Assembly: GCA_965247675.1 (NCBI GenBank)
Contig: OZ252025.1
Coordinates: 2,525,153-2,589,152, forward strand
Origin: Tepidiformaceae bacterium
GTDB lineage: Bacteria > Chloroflexota > Dehalococcoidia > Tepidiformales > Tepidiformaceae
DNA length: 64,000 bases
Direction of reading: 5' to 3'
Shown: positions 23,821 through 53,149 of the stretch, piece after piece
How positions within the stretch are numbered: the stretch's first letter is position 1
How the letters are laid out: each line of letters begins with the position of its first letter
Program-made: the position numbers and the translations under genes
The notes under the pieces: model-generated
Seen by the model: the letters and a program-made list of their open reading frames with translations, nothing else
The model's database searches: none
Told to the model about the DNA's origin: nothing

Positions 23821-23922
23821 AGGAACTCACAGAATAGCGCCGCCGCCCCCAACCGTCAGCGCCCCCTTCGCGCCCGCCTCTCCTACACTACGCCCGCGGG
23901 CCAGCAGCCCCGGGAGGACGCC

Positions 23923-27654: not shown

Positions 27655-27684
27655 ACCTTAACAGACGGAAAGTCGAATTACCCC
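27655..27684 (-). promoter_or_regulatory. Bipartite upstream motif copy 1 (GGGGTAATTC, 14 nt, TAAGGT)
   Basis: On the minus strand, TAATTC is the reverse complement of 27675-27680 and TAAGGT of 27655-27660. It lies upstream of paralog 1 (ATG 27628). Confidence 0.45.
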
Positions 27685-27759
27685 ACCCGCCTCAGGCGAC
27701 CGGTCATGTGTCGCTGGCGCCCCCGACGACGGCGGTTCGAAGGCCCGCTAGGCCAGGTG

Positions 27760-30103
27760 CTACTCGAATGTGATCTTCCAGATCGCGTCGATGGTAGAGA
27801 CGAGCAGGCTGCCGTCGGGCGTGACGAGAATCCCCGTTGACTGCTCGTTTCGGTCCGGGGAGTACACGCTGTGCTCGACCACGATCGCGACGGCGCCATC
27901 CGGCGATATCCTCACGACGTGGCCGTACCCCGTGTCGACGACGTAGAGCGTCCCGTCGGGCGCGACGGCGATGCCCCCGATGGAAAGCGTTAGAACCCCG
28001 CCGTGGTGTTCCTGGCGGTCCTGAAAAGCCGTCGAGACATCTCCATCTGGCGTGACCTTCACGATGATGGCTCTCCCCTGCCGCCACGTCATGAGGTAGG
28101 CGTCACCCCCTTCGCCCACGGCAATCGCTTGAATGAACTCGAGTCCTGCTGCGAGGAGGGTCCAGGTCTCTCCGTCAGCGGACACCCGGTAGAGGCGGCC
28201 GGGAAACGCCTCGGCGATGAGCAAGTTGCCGTCGTCATCGAAGGCCAATGCCTGGGGACGCCGAACCTCGAAGCCATCGGCGGGGTCGACCGTCGTGACG
28301 GAACCATCGGGTGAGACCTTGCGGATGCGGTCGTTACCGTAATCCGCGACATAGAGGGAGCCATCGGCGTGGACGGCAATCCCCCTGGGCCGCTTGAACT
28401 GCGCTTCGTCGCCTGGGCCGTCACGGAATCCAGCCCCGTTGGCCCCGGCCAGGGTCGTCACCGTGCCATCCGGCGAGACGCGACGGACAGAGTTGTATTG
28501 AGCGTCCGCGACTACCACATTGCCAGTTGAATCCAACGCGATGAGCTCCGGCGTGAAGGGCAAGTCCCGGGCGAAGATGCTGGCGCGCACGCCCTCCACC
28601 CGGGGCACCGGCTCCCCGCCCGCAAGCGCGATGTCGGTGGAGTCGGAGCCGCCTGGGTCGGGAGCAATCACGCGGAGCAGACTCTCTGCCTGATCGGTCA
28701 CCACGAGGGAACCATCGGGCAGCACGGCAAGCGAGCCTGGCAGGCTCAGGGCGGCCGCGCCCCTGGGGCCATCTACATACCCATCCTCCCCGGCCGGCTA
28801 CTGCCTCCAGCGTGCCGTCGGCAGTGAGCCTGACTATCTGGTGCCGGCCCGTATTCGAGATGAGGATCTCGCCGTCATTTGTCACGGCCAGCCCCGCAGG
28901 CCCGGCCAACACGCCCCCGGAAAAGGGCGACTCGCTCCGGAAGAGCGTGGTGACCACGCCATTCGTGTCGACCTTGCGGATAGTGGCGAAGGAACCGACC
29001 TCACCCGGAACAAAGACCCAGTCGATCACGTAGACGGTACCCGCATCGTCCACCGCGAGGTCTTCCAGCCAGGTGAACTGGGCCTGCGCCCCCGGGCCGT
29101 CGCGATAGCCGCGCCCACCTCCGCCAGCGAGGTGCGTGACCCACCCCGATGACGAGATCCGTCTGATCTGGTACTGCTCCATAACGTAGAGGTCGCCCTC
29201 TGGGCTCAGCGCGGTCCCCCTGACACTCCTGAAATACGCCTCTTCCGCGGGCCCGTCGGGCGGGATTTCGAAGGGCGCGCCCTCGGGACCGCCCCCGGCG
29301 ACGACGCTGGTCACCCTTCCGTCTGACGAGAACTTGCGGATAAGGCCGCCGGCCCAGGCGGCGGCCACGTAGATGTTCCCCTCCGCATCCACAGCAACAT
29401 CGCTGGGCGGGGGCAGAGCGCTCCTGTTGCCGCCGGCGATGGTGCTCACCGCGCCATCCGGCGCGACGCGTCGAACTGCACCATGCGCCCGGTCTGCCAC
29501 GATCACGCTCCCGTCGGGCGCCGCGGCCAGCCCCAGGTCCCTGATAATTGACGCCCACTGCTGACCGAAGCGTGCTTCGGTCCCGGGTCCATCCGCGTAG
29601 CCCCACTCGCCCGCCCGGCCCGCGAGCGTGCTGACCGCCTCCGTGGGTAGCGGCGCCTCAAGCCTGACATCGCCGAAGCGGAGGGTACGGTCGGGGGTGA
29701 GGCCGTCGTCCAGCGGGAGGGAGATGGTCCCCAGCGTGTCCCACTCGCCCAGCGAACCGCGCGCGCTGATGTAGATGTTCTGGTCGTCCCGTACGTCCTG
29801 CCAGACCCACACCTCGACGGTCACCGGCGAGGACCGGTTCGGGAGCCCGAGGTCAACGGAGATGTCCCCATAGCGGTACCTGCCGCGGGGACTGAATCCA
29901 TCGTCGAGCGCCAGGGGGATTCTCCCCAGCGTCTGCCACAAGCCACCCGCCGGGCGGGCGCCGATGTGGATCTCGCGCCCGTCCTCCACGTTCTGCAAGA
30001 CGCGCACCTCGACCGTAACCGTTGGCTCGCTCTGGGCGCCGCTCGCCGGCGCCACAACCAGGCCCAGCAAAGCGGCCAGCGCCGCGAACGCCAGTCTCCT
30101 CAT
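27760..30103 (-). pseudogene. Secreted NHL-repeat beta-propeller protein, paralog 2, interrupted by one frameshift
   Basis: ORFs 28421..30142 and 27760..28725 are two halves of one gene. Homology switches frame at the C/G run near 28787-28792 (AVAGRG | EDGYVDGPRGAAALSLPGSLAVLPDGSLVVTD). ATG 30103 is preceded by a GGAAGGAAGG SD. Confidence 0.8.
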
Positions 30104-30128
30104 CCGCCTTCCTTCCTCATGCACGGCG

Positions 30129-30157
30129 ACCCTAGCAGACAACCCTCCGACTACCCC
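30129..30157 (-). promoter_or_regulatory. Bipartite upstream motif copy 2 (GGGGTAGTC, 14 nt, TAGGGT)
   Basis: TAGTC is the reverse complement of 30149-30153 (one base shorter than TAATTC). TAGGGT is the reverse complement of 30129-30134. Confidence 0.4.
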
Positions 30158-30229
30158 GTCCGTTCAGCGCTACGTGTCATCCTTCGTGACCGGCGCCTAC
30201 TACCAGGTCGCCCGCGGCTCCAGGCCCTG

Positions 30230-32806
30230 CTAGTCCCAGGTTGCGTCATCGACCGGCTGGGCCGGCTCATCCGCGACCGGCTCGTCCTCAGCCGGCTCAT
30301 CCCCGAACGTGATCTTCCAGATCACATTCGCGACGGTGTCGGAGACGATGAGGTCGCCGTTCGCAGCGACCAGGATCCCGTGGGGCTCGTACAGCCGCAC
30401 GGTCGAGGGCGGACCACCCGCGGGAGCGGCGCGGAGCGTACCGGGGGACGGCCTTCCAGCCACCACCAACACCTCCCCGTCCAGCGTGACCCTGAGCACG
30501 CGTCCGTAGTAGCTCTCCGTCACGTAGAGGGCGCCATCGGCGCCAAGGGCAATCCCGTCCGGAGCCGAGAGAATCCCGCCCACGCCGGGCAGGGGCCGCT
30601 CCAGGAGGGCTGAGACGTTGCCCTCGGCGTCGATCACGAAGAGGCCGTCTTTCTCAACGACGAAGACGTTGCCCTCGTCGTCGAGCGCGATCGCTTCTGG
30701 ATGCTCGAAGGGGTGGCCCTGTCCGCGCCCCTCGAACGTGGAGACCCGACCGTGCGGCGAGAGCAGCTTGATGCGGTGGGCCCCCCGGTCGACGATCAGG
30801 AGTCTCCCCTCACCGTCAAAGGCGAGCCCAACGGCCTTGGTGAATCCACGGGCGACGACGGTGGTGACGGTACACAGTGGGCTGATGAGGCGGATGCGGC
30901 GACCCCCCTCATCGGCGACCACGATGTCACCACCCGGTGCGACAGCGACGGCCTGAGGGCTCCAGAACTGCGCGCTCGCACATGATCCGTCGCGCGTCCC
31001 CGCCCCATTGCCGCCGGCCAGCGTCGTCACGGTGCCATCGGGGGCGATGCTGCGAATCGCGTGGTTCGCCGAGTCGGCGACCAGCACATTGCCCTCGCCA
31101 TCGAACGCCATGCCCCGGGGCTCGCCAAAGGCCGCCTTGTGCCCGGGCCCGTCCGCCAGTTCCGGGTCCCGTCCACCCCAACCTGCCAGGATCGTGACCT
31201 CGCCCACGCCGGCCAGGTAGGGAGGGGCAACTCCGCCCACCACAGCCAACTCGCCGCTGTCCGCATCGGGGGCAATGCGGCGGATGATGTGGTTGCCCTC
31301 ATCGGCCACCACGAGCGTTCCGTCATCAGCGATGGCGATCGAGGCCGGCTCGTTGAACAAAGCCTCGGCGGGGTCGCCCTCGATGTAGCCCCGCTCGCCC
31401 GTGCCCGCCACGGCCCGCAGCACGCCCTCGGGCGTGAGCGCCAGGATCTGGTGGTGGAACGTGTTTGCCAGGTAGACCGTGCCGTCGTTCCCAAGCGCAA
31501 GACCGCGGGGGTAGGCGAGCTCCCCACCAAGCCCCGGCCCCTCGCTCCGGAAGAGCGTCGACACGGTGCCTGCGGGGTCGATCACCCGAACGGCAAAGAA
31601 ACGGCCGCTGCCGATCTCACCGCTCTCGTCGAGCACGTAGACCTTTCCCGCGTCATCAACGTCGATTGCCCGCGGGTGAAAGAACTGGGCCTGCGCAGCC
31701 GGTCCGTCGCGATACCCGAATGCATCGGTTCCGGCGAAGGTCGAGACCCAGCCCGTCGGGGAGAGGCGCCGGATGCGCCTGTTCCACTCGGCGATGTAGA
31801 GGTTGCCGGCCTCATCGATGGCGAGAGCCCGGGGGAAGGAGAATTTCGCACTTGCCGCAGGACCATCAACAACGCTCCCCTGCGTGTGGGCCTGCAGGGG
31901 ACCGCCACCGGCCACGGTCGTGACCATCCCGTCCGGGGCGACCTTGCGGATGCGGTGCCCATCCGAGTCCGCGACGTAGATGGACCCGTCGCTGGCGATG
32001 GCCACGTCGGTCGGCCCGGCAAACTGCGCCGACGAGCCAGGCCCGTCACGAACGCCGCGCCCGTTGCCGCCGGCGATGGTCGTCACCGTCCCGTCGGCGG
32101 CGATCCGCCGGATAGCCCGGTTTGCTTGATCCGCCACCACGACACTTCCGTCGCTATCGAACTCCAGTCCGAGACCGAATGCCTTCCCGCCACGTTCGAA
32201 GAGCGCCTGGCTCCCCTCGCCGTCGCGGTAGCCCTGCACCCCCGGAATGCCCGCAAGCGTTGTCACGCCCACGTCGGGCAGCGGCACATCCAATGCGATG
32301 TCGCCGTAGCGGAACGTGTCGGTGTCATCGAATCCGTCGTCCAGCGGCAGGGACCTGGTCTCAAACGACGCCCACAGGCCCCTCGACCCGCGCGCACTGA
32401 TGTGGACGTTGCGGTCGTTCCGCACGTGCTGCCAGACGCGCACCTCGACGGTCACCGGCGAGGCCCAGTTCCAGAGCGGCACGTCGAGCGCGATGTCGCC
32501 GTAGCGGAACGTGTCGGTGGGGTCGAATCCATCGTCCAGCCGGAGCCGGCGCGTACCGAACGTTCGCCACAAGCCACCCTCCGGCCGGGCGCTGACGTGG
32601 ATGTTCTGGCCGTTTTCCACGTGCTGCCAGACGCGCACCTCCACCCGTACCGTGCCGGGGTCGTACTCCGCCGTCCCGGCGCCGCCCAACCCCACGAGCC
32701 CGAGCAGCGTGGCAATCGCCGCAGCGGCAACCGCTCGCGCGGGCCATCCCCAGATGGCCGTCCTCGCAGGGACGGGTCCGAAGCCTTTCGACCCTGGCAC
32801 GCGCAT
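30230..32806 (-). CDS. Secreted NHL-repeat beta-propeller protein, paralog 3
   Basis: Same architecture: twin VRVEVRVWQH...FRYGDIALDV modules followed by NHL repeats, with an acidic C-tail. ATG 32806 lies 6 nt after TACGGT. The ORF-track start at 32875 would include the promoter motif. Confidence 0.82.
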   Translation of the reverse strand: MRVPGSKGFGPVPARTAIWGWPARAVAAAAIATLLGLVGLGGAGTAEYDPGTVRVEVRVWQHVENGQNIHVSARPEGGLWRTFGTRRLRLDDGFDPTDTFRYGDIALDVPLWNWASPVTVEVRVWQHVRNDRNVHISARGSRGLWASFETRSLPLDDGFDDTDTFRYGDIALDVPLPDVGVTTLAGIPGVQGYRDGEGSQALFERGGKAFGLGLEFDSDGSVVVADQANRAIRRIAADGTVTTIAGGNGRGVRDGPGSSAQFAGPTDVAIASDGSIYVADSDGHRIRKVAPDGMVTTVAGGGPLQAHTQGSVVDGPAASAKFSFPRALAIDEAGNLYIAEWNRRIRRLSPTGWVSTFAGTDAFGYRDGPAAQAQFFHPRAIDVDDAGKVYVLDESGEIGSGRFFAVRVIDPAGTVSTLFRSEGPGLGGELAYPRGLALGNDGTVYLANTFHHQILALTPEGVLRAVAGTGERGYIEGDPAEALFNEPASIAIADDGTLVVADEGNHIIRRIAPDADSGELAVVGGVAPPYLAGVGEVTILAGWGGRDPELADGPGHKAAFGEPRGMAFDGEGNVLVADSANHAIRSIAPDGTVTTLAGGNGAGTRDGSCASAQFWSPQAVAVAPGGDIVVADEGGRRIRLISPLCTVTTVVARGFTKAVGLAFDGEGRLLIVDRGAHRIKLLSPHGRVSTFEGRGQGHPFEHPEAIALDDEGNVFVVEKDGLFVIDAEGNVSALLERPLPGVGGILSAPDGIALGADGALYVTESYYGRVLRVTLDGEVLVVAGRPSPGTLRAAPAGGPPSTVRLYEPHGILVAANGDLIVSDTVANVIWKITFGDEPAEDEPVADEPAQPVDDATWD

Positions 32807-32812
32807 CGCGCG

Positions 32813-32842
32813 ACCGTAACAGACAAGGCTCCGAATTACGCC
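32813..32842 (-). promoter_or_regulatory. Bipartite upstream motif copy 3 (GGCGTAATTC, 14 nt, TACGGT)
   Basis: TAATTC is the reverse complement of 32833-32838. TACGGT is the reverse complement of 32813-32818, 6 nt before ATG 32806. Confidence 0.45.
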
Positions 32843-32881
32843 ATACCGCCGCCCACGCCCGTCGCCATCTATCATGGGCGC

Positions 32882-33625
32882 GTGGCCATCGAGGAACCGC
32901 TGACGCCGCCTGCTCCCTCGCGCCGCCGGCTCGTCGCGCCCATGCTCGCCGTCGTCCTGGTGCTGGCGCTGCTCGTCGGGGGTGGGGCCGTCGCCTTCAT
33001 CGTTTCGCAGTCGGCCGGCAGCGACGCGCCCCCGGAGGCGGGGCCGTTCCTGACGCCCGCGGCCGCGCGCCCCGCCGCCATCTTCGACGTGCGCGAGGCG
33101 AACGGCCCCTCGCTCACGCTGCTGCCCGCCAACATCGAGGGAGAATCACTCACCGTCACGCTCGCCGCCGGAGTCGTGTTCGAGGCGCTTGTGCCCGGCC
33201 TGCCCTCGCGCATCGAGCCGGGGCAGTGGCTCACCTTCATCGGCGAGCGCGACCCCGTGCGCAACTTCGTCATCCGCCAGGTCATCGCCATCACCGAGCC
33301 GGGCGCCCCCCAGGCCGACGGCCTGGCGCGCTCGCCCGCGGGCTTCACCGGCGCCGAGCTCGTGAGCAACCCGGACCAGCGCCCCGTCCTCTGGGGCCGC
33401 GTCGTGTCCGTCACCCAGCAGACGAGCGAGGGCGGGGCCGAGATCACCCTCGCCGGACCGGACGGTCCCATCACGGTGCATATCTTCGCGGCCATGCCCC
33501 TCTTCTTCGTCGAGCCCTACGACGGCCCCATCATCGACGGCGACCGCATCGCCACGCGCGCACCCGCCGGCACCAGCCCCGCCAGCGCCGGGGTCGTGCT
33601 CGTCGCCCCCCAGGGCGCCCGCTAG
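32882..33625 (+). CDS. Hypothetical membrane-anchored protein
   Basis: C-terminal part of ORF 31061..33625. GTG 32882 lies 6 nt after TATCAT (32870-32875). One TM helix (LVAPMLAVVLVLALLVGGGAVAFIV). The TAG stop lies inside the CTAG at the MITE boundary. Confidence 0.55.
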   Translation: MAIEEPLTPPAPSRRRLVAPMLAVVLVLALLVGGGAVAFIVSQSAGSDAPPEAGPFLTPAAARPAAIFDVREANGPSLTLLPANIEGESLTVTLAAGVVFEALVPGLPSRIEPGQWLTFIGERDPVRNFVIRQVIAITEPGAPQADGLARSPAGFTGAELVSNPDQRPVLWGRVVSVTQQTSEGGAEITLAGPDGPITVHIFAAMPLFFVEPYDGPIIDGDRIATRAPAGTSPASAGVVLVAPQGAR

Positions 33626-33780
33626 CAGGGTGCTGATAAAGTCCGCAGCGGTCGTTTTGGGCTGATTTTGCGCCGTTCGCGAAATCGAAAAGGCCAATGT
33701 TTCTGGGCTCTACGAGAGACTGCCGGATGGTCAGTCAGGGCCTCAGGCCCAGGATCATGCATTTATCAGCACCCTGCTAG
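33622..33780. mobile_element. 159-bp MITE with the same terminal inverted repeats as the IS5-like copies
   Basis: CTAG+CAGGGTGCTGATAAA (33622-33640) and TTTATCAGCACCCTG+CTAG (33762-33780). There is no coding capacity, and the interior is AT-richer. Confidence 0.8.
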
Positions 33781-33973
33781 GGGGCAGGAGCTGGCGCCGC
33801 GGTCGGTGCGGGTGTCGGGCTGGGCGTGGACGTGGGCGACATTTCGGCGGTCGCCGTAGGGGCTGATGCGCCGGACCCGAGGCGGGAGGGATCATCTCGC
33901 CGCCGCACGCCGCCGCTGCGAGGGTGAGCAGGCAGGCGAACAGCACGAGAAAGGCACGGGCCCGACGCATCAT
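33781..33973 (-). pseudogene. 5' fragment of a paralog of the 34045..35349 lipoprotein, truncated by the MITE
   Basis: MMRRARAFLVLFACLLTLAAAACGGEMIPPASGPAH is nearly identical to the N-terminus of the next gene. The PT-linker is out of frame. The reading frame runs into the MITE inverted repeat. Confidence 0.75.
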
Positions 33974-33979
33974 GGCCAA

Positions 33980-34009
33980 ACCCTAGGGACGAAAACTCCG
34001 AATTACCCC
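33980..34009 (-). promoter_or_regulatory. Bipartite upstream motif copy 4 (GGGGTAATTC, 14 nt, TAGGGT)
   Basis: TAATTC is the reverse complement of 34000-34005. TAGGGT is the reverse complement of 33980-33985, 6 nt before ATG 33973. Confidence 0.45.
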
Positions 34010-34044
34010 GTCCGTTTCGAGGGAATTTCGGCCAATTTCCCGCC

Positions 34045-35349
34045 CTACTCGGGCGCGGGCCGGGCGGCGAAGAGGCCAAGAAGGCCCCGGGTCCCCGGAA
34101 ACGCTTCATCGAGCCCAACAACCTCGTGAACGCTTCGCGTCTCCAGGTCCACGAGGACCGTGGCGCGCATGGGCCCGCAGGCGTCTATTCCCAACAGCCC
34201 CACGAAGAGCTCCCCACCCAGGTGATCTATCAGCTCAAGAGGCTTCGGGTCTTCCCATGAATACGCCCCCAGAATCACGCCCTGTTCATTGATGGTGAAG
34301 AAACGATCGGGCTCGATCGGCGGATACCCGCGGTGCGTGCTCCACAGGAGAGTGCCGCCAGGCAAACTGACCGTTGGCCACCAGAACGAGCCCGAGGCGG
34401 TGACTTCGCCCCCGGGAGGCTTGCCCAAGAGACCGCCAGATGCATCCACGAAAGACGTATTCGGATTGTCCGACCAGCGTGGACGGTCCGACCAGACCGG
34501 ATTTAGTCCGTCCCCGCTAACTCGCCATGCCGCCATATATGGGGAATCAAGCCCTTCTGGAGGCGTCAGTTGTTCGCCCGAGCGGAACCACCATGCCCGT
34601 CTCAACTCCTCCTGCCCGGAACTCACCTTGCGGGCGAACAGGGCCACATCATCGTCCGTGACGGCAAGAATTTGCACCGACGCCCCAACAACCGGGACCT
34701 CACCCCACGTCTCCCACGTCTCCCACGTCTCGCCGCCATCCTCCGACACCCAGAGCGCCGAGACGGCATGCCCGTCCGGTCCATCGATCGTCCAGCAGAA
34801 TCCACGTTCACACCGCAGGGCCGCCAAGGTCTGGCCGCTCGCGCTCACCCCATAGACCACCACATCCGCGCCGGGATGAGACTGCTCGTCGAAGAAGGAC
34901 AGCGGGCGGTCGACCCGGAACTGGGCTGCGTCCGCTTGGGCAATGACTCTGTGCGTGTCCCAAGCACCCTCGCAGTGGTGTTCCAGGTAGTACAACGCCA
35001 TCCCCGCCGGCAGCGCCCGGGGCTCGCCCATGGTGAGCGGCAGGTACTCAGTGGCGGGCGGCGGCGTGGGAGTTGCCGTCGGTTCGGGCGCCGGGGCCGG
35101 GGTCGGTTCCGGCGAGTGAGTGGCAGTGGCAGCGGGCGAAGGGGTGGGGGTGGGAACGGGTGTGGGGGTGGCGGTGACAGTGGACGCAGCGGTCGGGGTG
35201 GCCGTCGGCGAAGGTTCCGGCGATTCGGTGGCGGTGGGGGACTGATGCGCCGGACCCGGGGCGGGAGGGATCGTCTCGCCGCCGCACGCCGCCGCTGCGA
35301 GGGTGAGCAGGCAGGCGAACAGCACGAGAAAGGCACGGGCCCGACGCAT
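34045..35349 (-). CDS. Lipoprotein with a Pro/Thr-rich linker and an Asp-box (BNR-like) containing globular domain
   Basis: Lipobox LTLAAAACGG and ~80 aa of PT-rich linker. SEDGGETW matches the SxDxGxTW Asp-box. No specific family recognised. Confidence 0.75.
   Translation of the reverse strand: MRRARAFLVLFACLLTLAAAACGGETIPPAPGPAHQSPTATESPEPSPTATPTAASTVTATPTPVPTPTPSPAATATHSPEPTPAPAPEPTATPTPPPATEYLPLTMGEPRALPAGMALYYLEHHCEGAWDTHRVIAQADAAQFRVDRPLSFFDEQSHPGADVVVYGVSASGQTLAALRCERGFCWTIDGPDGHAVSALWVSEDGGETWETWETWGEVPVVGASVQILAVTDDDVALFARKVSSGQEELRRAWWFRSGEQLTPPEGLDSPYMAAWRVSGDGLNPVWSDRPRWSDNPNTSFVDASGGLLGKPPGGEVTASGSFWWPTVSLPGGTLLWSTHRGYPPIEPDRFFTINEQGVILGAYSWEDPKPLELIDHLGGELFVGLLGIDACGPMRATVLVDLETRSVHEVVGLDEAFPGTRGLLGLFAARPAPE
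34705..34731. repeat. 9-bp tandem repeat x3 (CCACGTCTC) encoding ETWETWETW directly after the Asp-box
   Basis: Three exact units at 34705-34713, 34714-34722 and 34723-34731. Confidence 0.8.
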
Positions 35350-35358
35350 CAGGGCCTC

Positions 35359-35388
35359 ACCCTAGACGCGCGAGGGCCGAATTACCCC
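35359..35388 (-). promoter_or_regulatory. Bipartite upstream motif copy 5 (GGGGTAATTC, 14 nt, TAGGGT)
   Basis: TAATTC is the reverse complement of 35379-35384. TAGGGT is the reverse complement of 35359-35364, 9 nt before ATG 35349. Confidence 0.45.
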
Positions 35389-35467
35389 GTCCGTTTTCCG
35401 CAAAATTCCAACTCAGCCGCGCGCCAGTGCGGCGCTCCACTCAGCCGCGCGTCAGCCCGGCGTTCTC

Positions 35468-38400: not shown

Positions 38401-38818
38401 GCGACACATGCCGCTCGAATCCCTCAAGCGCGTAGAGCACACCCAGCGTGGTCCCGGCGCGCGGCTCCTCGCCTGTCTGCCCGACCGTGAGCCGCGCCGA
38501 CTCAACCACGACGGAGCGGCCAAGCGCGAACCAGCCGAGCCGCTCGTCGATGCGCCGCTCGACGGCCTCGCGCACGGCCAGGGAGTCGGGCGTGGCCAGC
38601 TGCTGCGCCTCGATGCCGGCGCGGATGGAGGGCTCGCCGCGGAGCTCGTCGCGCACGGTGAACTTGAGGCCGAGGTCGGCCATGGCGCGCGCGTAGATGG
38701 GCGCGCTCGCCAGCAGCGTCGAGGCCACGAGCACGCCCAGCGTGAGCACGCCCAGCATGCGCCAGCTGGCCGCGCCGTGACGCAGCAGCAACCCCCAGAG
38801 GACGGCCAGGTTCCCCAT
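35468..38818 (-). CDS. Large ABC-transporter permease with two FtsX (MacB-type) domains
   Basis: 1116 aa. N-terminal TM helix, large extracytoplasmic domain and FtsX 3-TM bundle, with this arrangement repeated. Paralogous to 39792..43154. ATG 38818 lies 9 nt after TACCCT (reverse complement of 38828-38833). Confidence 0.85.
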   Translation of the reverse strand: MGNLAVLWGLLLRHGAASWRMLGVLTLGVLVASTLLASAPIYARAMADLGLKFTVRDELRGEPSIRAGIEAQQLATPDSLAVREAVERRIDERLGWFALGRSVVVESARLTVGQTGEEPRAGTTLGVLYALEGFERHVSLEEGRLPVPTGPDGPIEVAMGPRAAALARLQVGDSFLLIEEVDNCDRIIPQGLQPQLPCDLTMFVRYSVPAVLTGLISIENEDASFWASVSRRYVMPSAPLADSGLVAPMVAHVDALLGDLAVRYPGQRLILRWNVFADVDQLDQGNFQRARADIIGLNQDLRVYRGYATSPLTVTLAAFGRSADFQRAPLTILLVQIAAIALFYVALISVAVVERQGEQIALLRGRGSSTAQIVALYALEGLALGLPAILVAPFIAGGVTALLGFTPVFSDISGGELLPVTFEPLAFPLAALGALLSIVALTAPAFVVARRGPQGQRRALARPTAGFLQRYYLDVVLVGFALLALWELNERDSVYTPSATGGVSSDPLLLASPALIIAAAAAVLARLYPIVLRVIVRVVGRVAGVAVVMGLWQLVRRPGPYTQLALLLMMAVAVGIFAASYTSTTERSYEDRARFVSGVELRASAGDATFLPADPAKLEGALAAVEGVEEGLAVMRLDGEIATPNSSGPEVAVLAVSAKAGDLLWWRDDFAEVPLAAILDRVDSGEILMGIPIPLGSAELSVWVNPALDRSTVTIWGRVRDATGRHGLLPFGKLDFRGWRELRAPIEGGGFRPLVEPLSLIALILTEPINQFNASNEPVYIDDLSSVDPDGTLNLLEGFEGVVRWEPVPSAERDVDNLQLSREEVRTGSQAARLGFRRGTTGERRGLFPADRGIPLPLLASESFLSENRLAIGDEDLIEIDGIIVPIVVRGVYERFPTLPALKGPSVVLNRDQLLRWGYMVSTAPGALSRANEVWLDLAPDADRELIVEALDGFGLRRVVDREATLASVRSNPLIAASGTGILSVSFVATLVLVAVALLVSLWMAIQRRRVEFAVLGAIGLTRRQVMAVLGLEYAIVGVVGIAAGVLVGQFVGRRMLSFLDVTEAGLPVEPGFVLQTDWAYVVVGAAVVAAVFAIALAATVRALARTSDAAVLRTE

Positions 38819-38931
38819 GCGCGCACAAGGGTAGCGGTCTCAGGCCCCCACGCGCTCGCCCACCCCCACACCCTCCCCTGGCAACGGTTGTGCCGGCGGC
38901 GACGCTGGGCCTGCCGGTTGGTGCTGCTGCC

Positions 38932-38978
38932 CCCCATCGTTCTCCACCTTCGTGGTGAATGCGCGGGGGCTTCTTGGG
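38932..38978 (+). repeat. Intergenic repeat R1 (~46 bp)
   Basis: CCCCATCGTTCTCCACCTTCGTGGTGAATGCGCGGGGGCTTCTTGGG is about 75 percent identical to R2. It contains a small hairpin (CACC..GGTG). Confidence 0.6.
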
Positions 38979-39052
38979 CGGTCCCCAGCGAGTGTGACAT
39001 CGCCCCCCGACCCACCCCCAACCCCCCACATCCGCCAGCCCGGCGAGTACGC

Positions 39053-39082
39053 TTGACAAATTTTGCTGAAGCAAGGAATAAT
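39053..39082 (+). promoter_or_regulatory. Near-consensus sigma70 promoter (TTGACA, 18 nt, AATAAT) with an inverted repeat in the spacer
   Basis: TTGACA at 39053-39058 and AATAAT at 39077-39082. The spacer contains TTGCT-GA-AGCAA (39063-39074). It stands out as an AT-rich island. Confidence 0.55.
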
Positions 39083-39108
39083 GGGGCTTGCCCGATAGGG
39101 CGAATATT

Positions 39109-39154
39109 CCCCGTCGTTCTCCACCTCGGTGGAAAACTGGCGGGGGTTCTCTTG
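39109..39154 (+). repeat. Intergenic repeat R2 (~46 bp) in the putative 5' leader of the NYN gene
   Basis: CCCCGTCGTTCTCCACCTCGGTGGAAAACTGGCGGGGGTTCTCTTG. Hairpin TCCAC-CTCG-GTGGA. It ends 5 nt before ATG 39160. Confidence 0.6.
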
Positions 39155-39159
39155 TCACC

Positions 39160-39795
39160 ATGACCAACCGCATCGCCGTTTACATCGATGCCCAGAACTT
39201 TTATCAGGGCGCCCGGGCGCGCTTCTTTGCGCCAGGCGCTCCTCGACGCAGGGGGCAGATAACCCCGCTGGAGCTCGGCAGGCTTCTCTGTACCCGCCGC
39301 AGGAATCTTGTAGAGCGCACGCTTGAGCAGGTGCGCATCTACACCGGGCGCCCAGACCCGCTCAGGGACCCGAGGACTTACGCCGCCCACATGCGCCAGT
39401 GCCACACCTGGGAGCGTTCGGGCGCCGTCGTCATCACCCGGCCCCTCAGGTACCCGCGCGATTGGCCCCGGGCCCGCGCCCAGGAGAAGGGCATCGACGT
39501 GCAGCTCGCCATCGACTTCGTCGCCGGCGCCATCGACGACGCCTACGACACCGGCATCATCTGTTCGACCGACACCGACCTGCTCCCGGCGCTGGAGTTC
39601 GTCGCAACCCGCTACGGCCGCGAGCGCGCCGAGACCGCCGCCTGGCTCGCGGGCGGCAAGGGCAGCGAACTCCGCCTCAGGCGCCCTTCGACCTGGCGCC
39701 ACCGCCTGAGCTTCCCGACACTGAGGCCGTCCGCGACCCAACCGACGACGCGCGATAGCAGGGCGCTCTCCTGTACGCTGACGCGCACTCCATGA
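39160..39795 (+). CDS. NYN-domain (PIN-like, LabA/DUF88-type) putative ribonuclease
   Basis: MTNRIAVYIDAQNFYQGAR... and EKGIDVQLAIDFVAGAIDDAYDTGIICSTDTDLLPALEFV are the NYN acidic motifs. The stop overlaps the permease ATG (ATGA). TTG 39088 is an alternative start. The C-terminal ~30 aa may be frameshifted. Confidence 0.7.
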   Translation: MTNRIAVYIDAQNFYQGARARFFAPGAPRRRGQITPLELGRLLCTRRRNLVERTLEQVRIYTGRPDPLRDPRTYAAHMRQCHTWERSGAVVITRPLRYPRDWPRARAQEKGIDVQLAIDFVAGAIDDAYDTGIICSTDTDLLPALEFVATRYGRERAETAAWLAGGKGSELRLRRPSTWRHRLSFPTLRPSATQPTTRDSRALSCTLTRTP

Positions 39796-42700
39796 ACAGC
39801 TTCGCCTCGCTCCTGCGCATCATCGCCCAGCGAAGCCTCGCAAACTGGCGGCTGCTCGCCACCGTCATCTTCGGCATGGTGCTCGCAGCCGCCCTCATGT
39901 CGAGCGTCATCCTCTACGCCGACGCCGTGCGCGACCTCGGCCTCAGCTTCACCCTGCGCCAGCAGGAACCGCTCGACCTCGACCTCAAGGTAGTCAGCAA
40001 CAGCCAGCCCGCCGAGCCCGCCATCTACCTGGAGCGCCGCAACGCGACGTTGGACCTCCTCCGCCGCTACGGCGGCGGGCTCATCGAGGGGACCGGCGTC
40101 TACGGGCGTACCTCCACCTTCTTCCTGACCGACCCCGGCCAGCCCGTCGAGAAGGAGGACGACCTGCGCGCCCGCGCCCATTTCCTCTTCTTCTCCGACG
40201 TCAGCGCCCACGTCACGCTCGTCGAGGGCGCCCCCGCCGCCCCCTCGCCCGCCACCACCGACCCCACCCGACGCCCCAGCATCGAGGTCTGGCTCAGCGC
40301 AACCGCCGCCCGCCAGCTCGGCGTCGCCCCCGGCGAGACGTTCGACGTCCACCCCTTCTGGCGCGACGACGTGGACCCCGTCGAGATCACGATCGTCGGT
40401 CTGATCGAGCCCAACGACCCGTCCGAGGACTACTGGTTCGGCAACGCCCACCGCCTGGTCGTCGGCAAGACGCGCTGGCCCACGTACCCGTTCGTCATCG
40501 ACGAACGCACCCTCGTCGAGGTTATCGCCCCCTACCTGCCCTCGATCGACGGCACCTTCGAGACCTTCGCATTCGTCGACAGCAACCGCGTCAACAGCCG
40601 CAACGCCGAGCAGGTCGAGCTCAACCTGCGCGCCCTCGAGAGGGCCGTGCGCGCCCAGCTGGAGCTGTCCTCGCTCAGCTCGGAGCTGCCGGACGTGATC
40701 TCCGAGTACCAGGAGAAGCTGTTCTTCACGCGGTTGCCCCTCTTCGCGCTCATGCTGCTCATCGTGGGCATCGCCCTGTACTACCTGGTGCTGGTCTCGA
40801 CGATGCTGGTGGAGCGCCAGACGGGCGAGATCGCGCTCCTCAAGAGCCGCGGCGCCGGCCTCGGCCAGATCATGACCGTCTACCTGATCGAAGGGCTGGC
40901 GCTCACCGTCTTCGCCGTCGTCCTGGGACCGCTGCTGGCCTCGGGCATGATCCGCCTGCTCGGTCCCACGCCGCCGTTCGCCGACCTGAGCCAGGGCGAA
41001 CTGCTGCAGGTCACCCTCACGCCGGAGGCGTTCGGCCTGGCCGCGCTGGGGGCGGCGCTCGCCCTCGCCGCCCTGCTCTGGCCCGCCTACCGCGCCTCCG
41101 AGGCGACCATGGTGCACTACAAGCAGAGCCTCGCCCGCCCCGACCGGCAGCCTCTCTTCCTGCGCTACTACCTCGATCTCGTGCTCATCGGCGTGGGCGC
41201 GTTCCTCTTCTACCAGCTGCGCCAGCGAGGCTCGCTCGTGACCGAGAACCTCTTCGGCGACCTCTCCGCCGACCCCCTCCTGCTCGTCTCCCCCGCGCTC
41301 TTCATGCTCATGATCGCGCTCGTCTTCCTGCGGCTCTTCCCGGTTGTGCTGCGGGTGGCCTCGTGGGCGCTGCGCGGGCTGAGCGGGGCGACAATCCTGC
41401 TCGGGCTCTGGCGCATGGTGCGAAGCCCCCTCCACTACAGCCGCCTCATCCTCCTGCTCCTGCTGGCGACCTCCGTGGGCATGTTCGCCGCCGGCTTCCG
41501 CGCCACGCTCGACCGCAGCTTCGAGGACCGCGCCGCCTATGAGGCCGGCGCCGCCGCCCGGCTCGTCGATATCCGCTCTCCCTCCCGCCTCTCGCCCGCG
41601 CGCCTCGAACAGACGATCGAGTCGATCGACGGGCTCGACGGCGCCAGCGCCGCCGCCCGAATCGAGGTGGCCTACTCCCCCCTCACCGGACGCTCGGTCC
41701 AGGCCGAACTCCTCGGCGTGGGCGAGAACTTCTCCGACGTGGCCTACTGGCGAAACGATTTCGGCGGCGACCTCGACGCGCTGCTCGCCGATCTCCAGCC
41801 CGAGGCGGAGGCGGACCTGCCCGACGGCGCTCTCATCCCCGCGGGCTCACGCGCCATCGGCATCTGGACGCGCATCTCCCTGCCCCCAACCGCCGCCCGG
41901 CCCGGCGTGCGCCTGCGGGACGAGAACGGCCTCTTCTACGAGTACATCTTCGCGACCGACGCCGTCGATGAGGACGACGGCTGGCTCCTCTACGTCGCCG
42001 ACCTTACCCGTCCCTTCAGCCCTCGCAACAACGGCCCCCCCCTCGACGCCACCCTGGAGGTCGAATCCGTCTTCCTCAGCGTGCGCCGCTACGCCGCCGC
42101 CCCTGGACGCATCGCGGGCGTCCTCGACCACCTCGTCGCCTACCCCGAGGGCGGCGGGCGCGACAGCGCCGTCGTGGTCGAGCCCTTCGAGTCGCTCGAC
42201 CGCTACCAGTCCATCACCGGCGCCTCTGGATCTGCGGAGACGACCATCACGCGAGCCGACGTCGACAACGCGCGCGGCCGCTACGCCGCCCAGATCACGT
42301 TCAACTACGACGCCTTCTCGACGAGCGCCGTGGGCCTGCGCCTGCGCCGCTCGCCCGCCCCCCTGCGCGTGCTCGCCAGCGAGTCGTTCCTGGAGGCCAC
42401 GGGCGCCAGTCCGGGCGACACCTTCCGCCTGCGGGTGAACCGCCAGGTGGTGCAAGCACAGATAACCGGCGCCTTCGAGCTCTTCCCCGGCTTCTACCCG
42501 GGCCCGCGCGACCACCTGCTGGTGGCCGACCTCGCCGCCCTCAGGGGGGCGGGCGCGGGGCTGCCGCGCATGGCCGGGGGCATCAACGCCAACGAGATCT
42601 GGCTGGGGGGCGTCGAGGGCGTCGAACTCACGACCGAGTGGCTCGAGGAGCAGGGCATCCGCGCCCGCTGGGTCTACGACGAGGGCGCCATCCTCGCCCT

Positions 42701-43154
42701 TGAGTCCTCCGACCCGCTCGTGGCCGCCAGCTGGGAGGGCATCCTCTTCCTCTCCTTCGGGGCGGTGCTGCTGCTCACCGCCCTCGGCTTCATCGTCTTC
42801 TCCTACCTGGCCGCGCAGACGCGCTCGCTGGAATTCGCCATTCTCCGCACGATGGGCTTCTCGGGACGGCAGATCGTGGGCGTCGTCGCCTTCGAGCAGC
42901 TCTTCGTGATCGTCGCGGGCGTGGCCGCGGGCACCGCCCTCGGTTTCCCCCTCGGACGCCTCATGATCGGCGCCCTCGCCCTCACCGAGGACGGCAGTGA
43001 CGTGGTGCCACCCCTGCTTTCGCAGGTAAGCTGGGAGACCGTGCTCTCCGTTTACGGCCTGCTGGCCCTCGTCTTCATCGCCACCGTGGCCGCCCTCACG
43101 CGGCTCTACTCGCGGCTGGCCCTGCACCGCGCCCTGCGCATCGGCGAGCTTTAG
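39792..43154 (+). CDS. Large ABC-transporter permease with two FtsX (MacB-type) domains
   Basis: 1120 aa with the same architecture as 35468..38818. N-termini align: WRLLATVIFGMVLAAALMSSVILYADAVRDLGLSF versus WRMLGVLTLGVLVASTLLASAPIYARAMADLGLKF. Confidence 0.85.
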   Translation: MNSFASLLRIIAQRSLANWRLLATVIFGMVLAAALMSSVILYADAVRDLGLSFTLRQQEPLDLDLKVVSNSQPAEPAIYLERRNATLDLLRRYGGGLIEGTGVYGRTSTFFLTDPGQPVEKEDDLRARAHFLFFSDVSAHVTLVEGAPAAPSPATTDPTRRPSIEVWLSATAARQLGVAPGETFDVHPFWRDDVDPVEITIVGLIEPNDPSEDYWFGNAHRLVVGKTRWPTYPFVIDERTLVEVIAPYLPSIDGTFETFAFVDSNRVNSRNAEQVELNLRALERAVRAQLELSSLSSELPDVISEYQEKLFFTRLPLFALMLLIVGIALYYLVLVSTMLVERQTGEIALLKSRGAGLGQIMTVYLIEGLALTVFAVVLGPLLASGMIRLLGPTPPFADLSQGELLQVTLTPEAFGLAALGAALALAALLWPAYRASEATMVHYKQSLARPDRQPLFLRYYLDLVLIGVGAFLFYQLRQRGSLVTENLFGDLSADPLLLVSPALFMLMIALVFLRLFPVVLRVASWALRGLSGATILLGLWRMVRSPLHYSRLILLLLLATSVGMFAAGFRATLDRSFEDRAAYEAGAAARLVDIRSPSRLSPARLEQTIESIDGLDGASAAARIEVAYSPLTGRSVQAELLGVGENFSDVAYWRNDFGGDLDALLADLQPEAEADLPDGALIPAGSRAIGIWTRISLPPTAARPGVRLRDENGLFYEYIFATDAVDEDDGWLLYVADLTRPFSPRNNGPPLDATLEVESVFLSVRRYAAAPGRIAGVLDHLVAYPEGGGRDSAVVVEPFESLDRYQSITGASGSAETTITRADVDNARGRYAAQITFNYDAFSTSAVGLRLRRSPAPLRVLASESFLEATGASPGDTFRLRVNRQVVQAQITGAFELFPGFYPGPRDHLLVADLAALRGAGAGLPRMAGGINANEIWLGGVEGVELTTEWLEEQGIRARWVYDEGAILALESSDPLVAASWEGILFLSFGAVLLLTALGFIVFSYLAAQTRSLEFAILRTMGFSGRQIVGVVAFEQLFVIVAGVAAGTALGFPLGRLMIGALALTEDGSDVVPPLLSQVSWETVLSVYGLLALVFIATVAALTRLYSRLALHRALRIGEL

Positions 43155-43162
43155 GACACCGC

Positions 43163-44080
43163 ATGACTACCTTTCTCGACACCGAGACCGAGGCGCCTCC
43201 CTACATCCTCTGCGAGGACCTCTTCAAGATTCACAAGAGCGAGGACCTCGAGGTCGTCGCCCTGCGCGGCCTCGACCTGAAGGTCCGCGGGGGCGAGCTG
43301 ATGGCCATCGTCGGCGCCTCCGGCTCGGGCAAGAGCACCCTGCTCAACATCCTCGCCGGGCTCGACCAGCCCAGCGCCGGGCGCGCCTTCGTGGGCGGAC
43401 GCGACCTGCTCACCCTGACCGAGCCCGAGATGGTGCGTTACCGCCGCAGCTCCGTCGGCTTCATCTGGCAGCAGACCGGCCGCAACCTCATCCCCTACCT
43501 GACCGCCACCCAGAACGTCGAGCTGCCCCTCATGCTCGATGGCGTCGAGTCGCGCGCCGCCCGCGCGCGCGCCAACGAGCTCCTCGAGGCGGTCAGCCTG
43601 GGCCACCGCCACGACCACCACCCCGAGCAGCTCTCGGGCGGCGAGCAGCAGCGCGTCTCCATCGCCGTGGCGCTCGCCAACCGCCCGCCCCTGCTCCTGG
43701 CCGACGAGCCCACCGGCGAGCTCGATGCTATCGGCGCCGACAGCGTCTACGAGGTCCTCGGCGACCTGAACGCGCGCTACGGCGTCACCATCATCATCGT
43801 CACCCACGACCCCGAAATCGCCTCCCGCGTCGACCGCGTCGTCGCCATTCGCGACGGCCGCACGAGCATGGAGATCTTCCGCCGCGTGGAGAAGACGGGC
43901 GGCGTCACCCACGTCGTGCACGACGAGTACGTGCTCGTCGATTCCGCCGGCCGCCTGCAGGTGCCGCGCGAATTCCTCGACCGGCTCAGCATCCGCGAGC
44001 GGGCCAAGCTCTTCCTGGGCGATGGCCGCGTCGAGGTGCTGCCCGACACCGTTCGCCGCGTGCCCGTGGAGGAAAGCTGA
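43163..44080 (+). CDS. ABC transporter ATP-binding protein (MacB/LolD type) with a C-terminal AbrB/SpoVT-like extension
   Basis: Walker [10 protein letters not shown], signature LSGGEQQRV and Walker [13 protein letters not shown]. The tail [38 protein letters not shown] resembles a swapped-hairpin domain. Confidence 0.88.
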
Positions 44081-44958
44081 TGGCCGGCGCTTCGGTCGAG
44101 CTACGCAACGTCTCCCGCCGCTTCCAGCTCGGGTCGGAGGAGGTGTGGGCCGTTCGCGGCGTCACCCTCTCCATCGAGCCGGGCGAGTTCCTCGCCCTGA
44201 TCGGACGCTCCGGCTCCGGCAAGACGACCCTGCTCAACACCATCGCCGGGCTCGACCGCCCCACCGCCGGCGAGGTCGAGATCGACGGGGTGCGCGTCGA
44301 CACGATGCGCGAGTCCGAGCTGATTTCGCTGCGCCGCCAGAAGCTGGGCTTCATCTTCCAGTCGTTCGGATTGCTGCCCCTCCTCTCCGCCCAGGAAAAC
44401 GTGGAGCTACCCCTGCGCATCGCCGGCGTGCAGCGCGCACGCCCCGCCCGCGCCCGCGAGGTGCTGGAGCTGGTGGGGCTCGAACGGCGCGCCCACCACC
44501 GCCCCTACGAGCTCTCCGGAGGCGAGCAGCAGCGCGTCGCCATCGCCCGCGCGCTCGTCACCGAACCCACCCTCGTGCTCGCCGACGAGCCCACCGGCGA
44601 ACTCGACTCCGCCACCGCCACCGCCGTCTTCACCCTCATCCGCGACATCTGTCGCGAGCGCGGCGTCACCATCATCACCTGCACGCACGACCGCCTCGTG
44701 ATGGAGATGGCCAGCCGCGTCGAGGAACTGGAGGACGGCCGCCTCGCCACGGGCCACAAGGGCGATGTCTGGGGACGGGTGCAGTCGCGCGAACGCACCC
44801 CCTTCGAAGCGCCCGAGGGCGAGAGCCAGGAGAGCCAGTCGCTCCCCTCCCTCATCGGCGCCGACACCCGCAACTTCGGTCCCCGCGAGCCCGAGCCCAG
44901 GCCGGAGCCAGAGGAAGTCGAGGACATCCCCGAGGGCCGCTGGTCCCGGCCGGAGTAG
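44080..44958 (+). CDS. ABC transporter ATP-binding protein (MacB/LolD type) with an acidic disordered tail
   Basis: Walker A GRSGSGKTT, signature [15 protein letters not shown] and Walker [13 protein letters not shown]. The start overlaps the upstream stop (TGATG). Confidence 0.9.
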   Translation: MAGASVELRNVSRRFQLGSEEVWAVRGVTLSIEPGEFLALIGRSGSGKTTLLNTIAGLDRPTAGEVEIDGVRVDTMRESELISLRRQKLGFIFQSFGLLPLLSAQENVELPLRIAGVQRARPARAREVLELVGLERRAHHRPYELSGGEQQRVAIARALVTEPTLVLADEPTGELDSATATAVFTLIRDICRERGVTIITCTHDRLVMEMASRVEELEDGRLATGHKGDVWGRVQSRERTPFEAPEGESQESQSLPSLIGADTRNFGPREPEPRPEPEEVEDIPEGRWSRPE

Positions 44959-44992
44959 GGGACTCGCTGGCACCGCATACGGTGTCAGCGCC

Positions 44993-45367
44993 ATGCAAAC
45001 CGTTGACTACCTGGAGCTCCCATACCACCGCATCATCCAGCCGGGTGAGGGCGGCTACTGGTCCGCCCACGTGCTGGAGCTCGACGGCGTGTTCAGCGAG
45101 GGTGGGAGCGCTGCCGAAGCGGCCGAGAACCTGAACCTCGCGATGGGCCTCTGGATCGACCACGAGCTCGCAGAGGGCCACCCCATCCCCCAGCCCTGGG
45201 GTGCCGACCGCTCCGGCGACATCCGCCTGCGCCTGCCTCGATCGCTGCACGCCAATGCAGCCCTGCGGGCCAAGATCGAAGGGGTCTCACTCAACTACCT
45301 GATCGCTACTGCCCTCACGGCCTATCTCTCCCAACCAGTGGCGGCAGGCGAAGCCGCCAACCGATAG
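44993..45367 (+). CDS. hicB: HicB-family antitoxin (HicB N-domain + RHH-like C-terminus), no HicA adjacent
   Basis: YHRIIQPGEGGYWSAHVLELDGVFSEGGSAAEAAENLNLAMGLWIDHELAEGHPIPQP followed by RLRLPRSLHANAALRAKIEGVSLNYLIATAL. ATG lies 9 nt after TACGGT. Confidence 0.8.
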   Translation: MQTVDYLELPYHRIIQPGEGGYWSAHVLELDGVFSEGGSAAEAAENLNLAMGLWIDHELAEGHPIPQPWGADRSGDIRLRLPRSLHANAALRAKIEGVSLNYLIATALTAYLSQPVAAGEAANR

Positions 45368-45374
45368 CCTTCGC

Positions 45375-45707
45375 TCAGGGCGGGGGTAGCACAACCGCCA
45401 CCTGCCGACCGTCGTCGCCCAGTTCCCGCTTCAGGTAGAGGCACGCCGCCGCCAGCGAGTCCACCCGGGCAGTCCCGACGAGCTCCCACCCCTCTGCCCC
45501 AAGCGTCCCGAGGATCCACGTCGTGTGAACCTTCTCAGGGTCGAAGTGAATGGAGGTCGGGGTCTGGCTCGTGGCTCGGTCGGCGTGGAGCCCGAGGCTG
45601 GCCGCATCCTGCTCGTGGCTGAACAGAATCCAACCCCGCGCCGGCTTCTCGTCGGCGATGTACAGCAGCGCGTACTCCCACTTCACCGGCCGCATGCTAT
45701 CCGCCAC
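45375..45707 (-). CDS. Hypothetical small protein (DUF4177-like WEY...GAEGWELVG pattern)
   Basis: 110-aa ORF. GTG 45707 lies 8 nt after TAGAGT of motif copy 6. ATG 45695 is an alternative start. Confidence 0.45.
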   Translation of the reverse strand: MADSMRPVKWEYALLYIADEKPARGWILFSHEQDAASLGLHADRATSQTPTSIHFDPEKVHTTWILGTLGAEGWELVGTARVDSLAAACLYLKRELGDDGRQVAVVLPPP

Positions 45708-45715
45708 ATGGTTTC

Positions 45716-45745
45716 ACTCTAGCGACCCCCCGACCGAATTACCCC
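45716..45745 (-). promoter_or_regulatory. Bipartite upstream motif copy 6 (GGGGTAATTC, 14 nt, TAGAGT)
   Basis: TAATTC is the reverse complement of 45736-45741. TAGAGT is the reverse complement of 45716-45721. Confidence 0.45.
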
Positions 45746-45759
45746 ACCCGCTCAACCCC

Positions 45760-51526: not shown

Positions 51527-53149
<1,623 letters not shown>

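Follow-up and report, generated by a model that had tools for sequence, protein, structure and literature searches.

Six genes in a 64,000-nucleotide stretch of a Tepidiformaceae bacterium genome (contig OZ252025.1, positions 2,525,153 to 2,589,152) are each preceded by the same short element, which raises the question of what this element is and what reads it. We refer to the whole stretch as the window and count coordinates from its first letter. The genes encode three NHL-repeat paralogues (NHL1, NHL2 and NHL3), a lipoprotein, a fragment of that lipoprotein and a small protein. An initial annotation took the element, a conserved box followed by a -10-like hexamer, to mark a dedicated promoter class co-regulating secreted beta-propeller and lipoprotein genes, read by an alternative sigma factor, for example of the extracytoplasmic function (ECF) type, or with the help of an activator. 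The idea of a dedicated class is upheld here, as the same box geometry recurs in more than 20 genomes of the clade; judged by their sequences, the six sites belong to a promoter class specific to Tepidiformaceae and related Dehalococcoidia. As for the box itself, we tentatively favour an activator site at the -35 position over the -35 element of a dedicated non-ECF sigma factor.

Six copies of the box in the window

All six copies lie on the minus strand, each 5' of a minus-strand gene that the initial annotation had named. Their general form is RCGGRY, then GGGGTAATTCGG-N12-TAnnGT, and they read as follows.

Site 1, NHL1 promoter, 27655-27693, minus strand: GAGGCGGGT GGGGTAATTCGA CTTTCCGTCTGT TAAGGT, with 26 nt from the hexamer to ATG 27628; one box mismatch (reads ...TTCGA), N12 ending in TGT, a TGn extended -10
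Site 2, NHL2 promoter, 30129-30165, minus strand: GAACGGAC GGGGTA-GTCGG AGGGTTGTCTGC TAGGGT, with 25 nt from the hexamer to ATG 30103; 1-nt deletion within the box, N12 ending in TGC, Shine-Dalgarno-like leader GGAAGGAAGG
Site 3, NHL3 promoter, 32813-32851, minus strand: CGGCGGTAT GGCGTAATTCGG AGCCTTGTCTGT TACGGT, 6 nt before ATG 32806 (leaderless geometry); box reads GGCG... (one mismatch), N12 ending in TGT; within a divergent region shared with the gene of a 247-aa membrane protein
Site 4, lipoprotein-fragment promoter, 33980-34018, minus strand: GAAACGGAC GGGGTAATTCGG AGTTTTCGTCCC TAGGGT, 6 nt before ATGATG 33973; perfect box
Site 5, lipoprotein promoter, 35359-35397, minus strand: AAAACGGAC GGGGTAATTCGG CCCTCGCGCGTC TAGGGT, 9 nt before ATG 35349; perfect box
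Site 6, small-gene promoter, 45716-45754, minus strand: TGAGCGGGT GGGGTAATTCGG TCGGGGGGTCGC TAGAGT, 8 nt before GTG 45707; perfect box

The copies are less uniform than first described, since only sites 4-6 are perfect, NHL1 and NHL3 having one mismatch each and NHL2 its deletion. Likewise, the invariant 14-nt spacing reported initially holds only when counted from ...GGGGTAATTC (...TTC); after ...TTCGG, the gap is 12 nt. Measured from the 5' half of the box, the spacing is not strictly invariant, because the NHL2 deletion shifts it. The distances from hexamer to start (26, 25, 6, 6, 9 and 8 nt) agree with the earlier ones, but GTG 45707 is not the conserved start of the small gene: orthologues keep ATG 45695, 20 nt past the hexamer. 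At site 5, what was the first ATG is now CTG, and orthologues keep ATGATG 6-7 nt past the hexamer.

Allowing up to three mismatches, the pattern GGGGTAATTCGG-N12-TANNGT finds five window sites where 0.13 are expected, and none of 100 shuffles reaches five; site 2 is missed because of its 1-nt deletion. Neither GTAATT nor GTAATTC occurs outside the sites on either strand of the 64-kb window, and a weight-matrix scan of the window found no additional copy. When the six upstream regions are aligned with MAFFT, the only shared columns are those of the box and the hexamer. By descent the sites fall into three groups: the three NHL paralogues, the lipoprotein with its duplicated 5' end, and the small gene.

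With the sites of related genomes included, the architecture is an A-tract or RCGGRY, then GGGGTAATTCGG-N12-TAnnnT-N6-7 and a start codon. Taking as +1 the A of an ATG that lies 6 nt past the hexamer, the hexamer occupies -12 to -7, the box -36 to -25 and RCGGRY -42 to -37. An A-tract (-45 to -42) is present in about half of the gene families, the other half having GGGCGGGT or GGGGGAT instead.

Leaderless geometry itself is habitual in this genome (window GC ~69%): in many window genes a TAnnnT precedes the start codon by 5-9 nt, and the -35 is either ordinary or missing. In high-GC bacteria, a TANNNT hexamer some 6-8 nt before the start codon is known to mark leaderless genes (PMC3160421). 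Within the same window, the SLT gene has the promoter TTGACC-N18-TAGCAT-N7-GTG, and the contrast drawn with it in the initial annotation is correct. No consensus -35 for ordinary leaderless promoters could be defined from the small, noisy set of loci in hand. The special feature of the six sites is the box over the -35 region, not the leaderless geometry.

Conservation of the box and the genes behind it

We scanned one genome per species, from 185,579 species, for the exact pattern YGGGGTAATTCGG-N12-TAVRGT. Of the 43 loci found, 35 come from Tepidiformaceae, Dehalococcoidia or Chloroflexota assemblies, at 1-3 per genome, and the remaining eight (in Rhodoferax, Reinekea, Elusimicrobiota, Mucilaginibacter, Thiothrix and others) are at chance level. 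In 34 of 37 clade sites an ATG or GTG lies just past the hexamer (at 6 nt in 16, at 7 nt in 17 and at 8 nt in one), as against a start codon at 6-8 nt in two of the eight chance matches. This is the sigma-70-type leaderless arrangement, with TANNNT about 6-8 nt before the start, and it is also seen at four of the six window sites; the leaderless geometry first noticed in the window is thus borne out across the clade.

As a control, we scanned metagenomes for the 5' half of the box alone (CGGRYGGGGTAATTCGG), which gave at least 120 loci. Among the matches listed, 5 of 120 have TAnnnT at +12, three of these five being true clade copies, and 115 of 120 are without promoter geometry. The 17-mer therefore brings no -10 hexamer along by chance.

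An unrelated recurrent element that shares the 17-mer by chance, gtcctcNc CGGACGGGGTAATTCGG gacgctcg...ctcgctgtctgctgt, was seen in low-GC (0.38-0.48) metagenome contigs (loci L046, labelled human gut metagenome, L049, L061, L081, L091, L092, L104, L139, L141, L154, L156 and L161).

The lipoprotein gene lies in a neighbourhood (FtsX / FtsX-lipoprotein-(fragment+VWA)-247-aa gene-NHL-SDR) that is syntenic in loci L001, L165, L166 and L167, which were reached by protein homology and not by the box pattern. In all four its promoter is perfect (one mismatch in L166), even at 33-46% protein identity. Among lipoprotein orthologues with 33-84% protein identity, box and hexamer are perfect or have one mismatch, while the spacer and upstream flanks diverge. 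A comparison of 23 distinct lipoprotein-type promoters shows no variation in the block AAACGGACGGGGTAATTCGG or in TAGGGT; what varies is the spacer and the sequence upstream of about -50. Being kept while its surroundings diverge, the box is presumably under selection. The NHL genes have a sub-type of their own in at least 10 genomes: GGGGGAT-GGGG[TA][AT]ATTCCG, a 13-nt spacing ending in TGC or TGT, and TA[AT]GGT, followed, as at NHL1 and NHL2 of the window, by a leader of about 26 nt.

In two of the lipoprotein loci (L001, called at 10001, and L166, called at 6001), the start annotated in public gene calls is 150-450 nt too far downstream. There, the true start is predicted to be the leaderless ATGATG 6-7 nt past TAGGGT, without a Shine-Dalgarno sequence. 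Box and leaderless geometry together can thus fix start codons that have been misplaced.

The box precedes members of at least 12 unrelated gene families, drawn from more than 20 clade genomes and differing in spacers and flanks, so the copies are not by-products of local duplication, as had been argued from the start. Behind a perfect or near-perfect box stand genes for PBP1A (L006, L026), for a VWA/YfbK protein, either after a leader of ~95 nt (L002, L003, L014, L015, L031, L040, L043) or after box and lipoprotein fragment (L034, L037, L165), for an RCC1 lipoprotein (L027), for two leucine-rich repeat (LRR) proteins (L021), for further lipoproteins (L009, L018, L151), for a small membrane protein (L036) and for orthologues of the 106-aa small protein of the window (L022, L044). 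Three more genes (L007, L027, L033) encode proteins with a GerE helix-turn-helix (HTH), a transmembrane segment and an extracellular domain. The set consists mostly of exported repeat proteins (NHL, RCC1, PD40, a new propeller, LRR, VWA) together with a cell-wall synthase. As in a regulon, one cis-element precedes unlinked, functionally related genes and is kept across species. Membership appears to turn over between genomes: in two others, the orthologue of the 106-aa gene has no box and a TACCAT-N6-GTG promoter at the same place.

What may read the box

The position of the box is that of an activator site in a class II promoter, as it spans -36 to -25, extends to -45, and has fixed spacing and orientation. 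Where a housekeeping TTGACA-like -35 would stand, 16-18 bp from the -10, the sites have GGGTAA or GGTAAT. The box is asymmetric, without dyad symmetry, and occurs once per promoter in a single orientation, with spacing fixed within 1 nt; at 12-20 bp, the conserved stretch exceeds the length of a -35 element.

In the activator reading, a sigma-A-type holoenzyme would read the -10 hexamer, and the TGn extension where there is one. In place of the -35 hexamer, the box would bind a dedicated positive factor, which would bring in polymerase in class II style, as at MalT and pho boxes. This factor would thereby co-regulate an envelope and secreted set: the beta-propeller lipoprotein, NHL, RCC1, LRR and VWA proteins, and PBP1A. 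Transcripts are predicted to be leaderless at the lipoprotein, NHL3, PBP1A and GerE genes, and to have short leaders at NHL1 and NHL2 (about 19 nt) and at VWA (~95 nt). We favour this reading because of the length of the conserved stretch, the box-less orthologues with the same -10, the GerE rather than sigma genes behind the box, and the precedent of MalT. TGn extensions also accompany degenerate boxes (12/14) rather than perfect ones (3/43), as expected if a single sigma-A-like holoenzyme can draw on either the box or TGn (Fisher p = 5e-8, a correlation confounded by orthology, the degenerate sites being mostly NHL-gene promoters).

Besides this confounding, several points weigh against an activator. 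The asymmetry, single copy, strict orientation and near-fixed spacing suit a sigma -35 equally well, and G at -8, found in 12 of 14 unforced sites and in ~21% of other candidate promoters, could reflect a different sigma. By unforced sites we mean protein-homology loci and weight-matrix matches; in the exact-scan loci, conservation of the 12-bp core is imposed by the search pattern. No regulator or sigma family recurs beside the sites in a pooled Pfam scan of 76 small flanking open reading frames (ORFs), and the window encodes no candidate regulator. In one genome, the box of a further GerE-RCC1 gene is no more than a weak variant. Finally, the architecture, its conservation, the genes that it precedes and its confinement to the clade are observed, but we infer from sequence comparison where transcription starts, that the genes are co-expressed, that regulation is positive and what kind of factor acts.

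The MalT box GGGGA(T/G)GAGG (E. coli, Klebsiella; also the Actinoplanes MalT motif) overlaps the -35 region at a fixed distance from the transcription start (PMC7567727). Like it, the present box is asymmetric and G-rich and lies at a fixed distance over the -35 of promoters without a consensus -35, and in both cases a multi-operon regulon can be recognised by motif search upstream of genes. MalT, moreover, belongs to the LuxR/GerE family, and the genes behind the present box include three of the GerE family. Unlike MalT boxes, however, which come as repeats, there is one box per promoter here; its sequence is unrelated and it is known from sequence alone. The predicted leaderless transcripts, the uncultured Chloroflexota background and the envelope and surface gene set, as opposed to sugar use, also set it apart. 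Pho boxes, the sites of PhoB, replace the -35 hexamer and are direct repeats with 11-bp periodicity. The likeness lies in a (here proposed) activator site standing in place of the -35 at a fixed distance from the -10, but no 11-bp direct repeat is evident. With leaderless TANNNT promoters the sites share a TAnnnT 6-7 nt before the start codon and the lack of a Shine-Dalgarno sequence, whereas the weak or TTGACA-like -35 of those promoters is replaced by an invariant box of 12-20 bp.

Could the membrane-tethered GerE proteins behind the box themselves read it, standing in for sigma region 4? We consider this rather doubtful. Their N-terminal HTH, related to sigma region 4, is followed by one transmembrane helix and an extracellular RCC1/PD40 beta-propeller or a domain without assignment, and so an extracellular propeller sensor might act directly on the -35 region and switch on secreted propeller, LRR, VWA and lipoprotein genes. 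The GerE N-terminal family is large and widespread, and no homologue of the GerE-transmembrane proteins was found in the window. If this is true, this Chloroflexota clade would have a membrane-anchored, one-component signalling route of its own that is positively autoregulated.

It is possible, if less likely than an activator, that the box is the -35 of a dedicated non-ECF alternative sigma, whose sigma-A-like regions 2 and 3 would read TAnnGT and TGn and whose region 4 would read GGGGTAATTC. The single orientation, the one asymmetric box per promoter, the tight spacing and the frequent G at -8 would all fit, and in the window the box never occurs apart from a -10 hexamer. The conserved stretch nevertheless reaches beyond typical region-4 contacts, and box-less orthologous promoters keep the same -10 and start position. 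In addition, none of the ~50 genes behind the box encodes a sigma, nor do any of the 76 flanking ORFs (8-kb pieces per genome), although autoregulation is common rather than universal. An ECF (group 4) sigma, given as the example in the initial annotation, seems very unlikely. ECF sigma promoters have, for instance, GGAAC or GGAAT at -35 and CGTC or GTT at -10, and the present sites resemble them in a conserved -35 with an AA(C/T) core, strict spacing and the envelope and secreted gene set typical of ECF regulons. GGTAAT or GGAAAC could then be the -35 'AAC/AAT' motif, with the 3' GT of the hexamer part of the -10; the variants GGGGAAATTCCG, GGGGGAAACTCC and GGTGTAACTCC resemble ECF -35 cores, and several spacers contain CGTC-like strings. 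The expected pairing of a CGTC/GTT -10 with an AAC-type -35 at 16-18 bp, free of TANNNT and TGn, is however not what we see. The -10 has the TAnnnT form that the genome's ordinary promoters show, with T-12, A-11 and T-7 invariant in the unforced sites too, and weak boxes are accompanied by TGn, which is read by sigma region 3, a region that ECF sigmas lack. The CGTC strings lie at variable positions, ~10 nt from GTAAT rather than the usual 16-17 nt; the CGTC/TGTCTG element initially described as partly conserved has no fixed position and in NHL promoters is largely the TGn extension. Nor was a sigma/anti-sigma pair found behind or beside any site, among the ~50 genes behind the box and the 76 flanking ORFs.

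A repressor operator overlapping the -35 of otherwise constitutive promoters is unlikely. A long, well-conserved box over the -35 region would suit an operator, as would the turnover of regulon membership, but no -35 is recognisable under or beside the box, so that the -10 would have to suffice for these promoters unless a positive factor took part. The lack of dyad symmetry also argues against an operator, and compensating TGn extensions at weak boxes are expected if the box adds to promoter strength. We regard it as similarly improbable that these are simply strong constitutive promoters, at which the housekeeping holoenzyme reads the box and an AT-rich UP-like stretch with no dedicated regulator. 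The A-tract (AAAACGG, ~-45 to -39) and an AT-rich 'gaaatttc' (~-60 to -45, in lipoprotein and VWA promoters) do lie at the positions of UP-element subsites. In half of the gene families, however, other sequences take the place of the A-tract; another promoter of the same genome uses TTGACC, and the box is restricted to a few sites per genome, at envelope genes. Local duplication or chance matching can hardly account for the copies. The NHL genes are paralogous and the lipoprotein fragment duplicates a 5' end with its promoter, leaving only three independent origins in the window, but this explanation is effectively refuted by the exact scan, the diversity of gene families and the start-codon geometry, which chance matches elsewhere lack along with the -10. 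A structured RNA element in a 5' untranslated region, transcribed from further upstream, can practically be dismissed. It would explain the sequence conservation and nothing else: RNAalifold on 20 diverse sites gave -0.49 kcal/mol and no covarying pair, which effectively refutes it, Rfam has nothing at the sites, and the variable 12-nt spacer shows no complementarity.

A literature search returned nothing on promoters of this clade. The kind of element is well known, whereas the box sequence, its clade and its gene set appear previously undescribed, and the conservation is unusually sharp. The transcription signals of Dehalococcoidia and Tepidiformaceae are barely known, and most of this clade has not been cultured. 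With the box, a conserved regulon of surface and secreted repeat proteins and PBP1A becomes accessible from sequence alone; these are probably the proteins by which the cells interact with their surroundings or hosts. Short and invariant, it should also make a good bait for its regulator in DNA-affinity methods.

Neighbouring genes and other features of the window

The genes behind the six sites, and the membrane-protein gene between them, are as follows.

25085-27628, minus strand: NHL1, an 847-aa secreted NHL-repeat beta-propeller with signal peptide and N-terminal 'VEVRVWQ' domains
27760-30103, minus strand: NHL2, an NHL paralogue split by a frameshift near 28787-28791
30230-32806, minus strand: NHL3, an 858-aa NHL-repeat paralogue, a secreted beta-propeller
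32882-33625, plus strand: a conserved single-pass membrane protein of 247 aa, with its own leaderless-type promoter TATCAT-N6-GTG
33755-33973, minus strand: the lipoprotein 5'-end remnant, 73 codons with a frameshift past the lipobox
34045-35349, minus strand: the lipoprotein, 434 aa, with lipobox LAAAAC-GGE, a Pro/Thr-rich linker and then a beta-propeller domain
45375-45707, minus strand: a small clade-restricted protein, 106 aa from ATG 45695, without a signal peptide

NHL2 consists of two overlapping reading frames (28421-30142 and 27760-28725, minus strand), and the break is either that of a pseudogene or a homopolymer error of the assembly. The lipoprotein matches no Pfam family. Its AlphaFold2 model (pLDDT 79, pTM 0.73) shows an all-beta domain that compares with prolyl oligopeptidase beta-propeller domains at TM 0.36-0.41; on this model, the domain is predicted to be a generic propeller fold. 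Longer homologues contain two such propeller domains, and homologues are located on Chloroflexota or Dehalococcoidia contigs. In relatives, the unit of site 4 and lipoprotein fragment precedes a VWA/YfbK gene (L001 11727, L165 7459, L034, L037). That gene is missing in the window, so the orphan site 4 promoter now faces into the 3' end of the convergent gene for the 247-aa protein. The product of the latter has no Pfam family; the gene is divergent from NHL3, with both promoters within one 75-bp intergenic region, and is syntenic in every related locus examined. Beside the lipoprotein, the FtsX permease gene has a conserved leaderless promoter without a box, GA(G/A)ACCGC-TACCCT-TGTGCGCGC-ATG (about 38819-38850, minus strand), also seen in relatives (L165 2525, L166 2359, L167 2555), which places the transporter outside the box-carrying set.

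The 106-aa protein has a sub-threshold Pfam hint of DUF4177 and a low-confidence AlphaFold2 model (pLDDT 52). Just upstream of site 6 lies an exact 18-bp direct repeat, GCTGCGCGCTCGCGATGC, at 45760-45777 and 45827-45844 (minus strand). Similar strings occur upstream of the L165 lipoprotein promoter and the L170 small gene, and the repeat may be another cis-element or a clade intergenic repeat. Other intergenic regions of the clade contain repeated modules, GGAGAGCGC(N)...GCTGAGTGG / CGCCTGAG (L170 2787-3000, L171 2842-3000, L168 3845-4000), which look like a family of intergenic repeats.

The window encodes ParA, Jag and YidC, which suggests that it lies near the replication origin. Two direct copies of a ~470-bp repeat (19531-19998 and 20706-21173, 98-100% identical and 1175 bp apart) fall within 16.2-21.1 kb, where no ORF passed a coding filter based on GC content at third codon positions (GC3); they could stem from a partial duplication or be what is left of a mobile element. 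Directly 5' of groES (53174-53533) and groEL (51527-53146), a CIRCE-type inverted repeat, TTAGCACTC-N9-GAGTGCTAG at 53535-53561, indicates probable HrcA-type heat-shock control of both genes. A tRNA-Pro(CGG) gene at 23744-23820 (minus strand) is overlapped by the longest ORF of the neighbouring SDR gene (23752-25077, plus strand), so the true SDR start should lie further downstream; SDR orthologues are 270-295 aa long.

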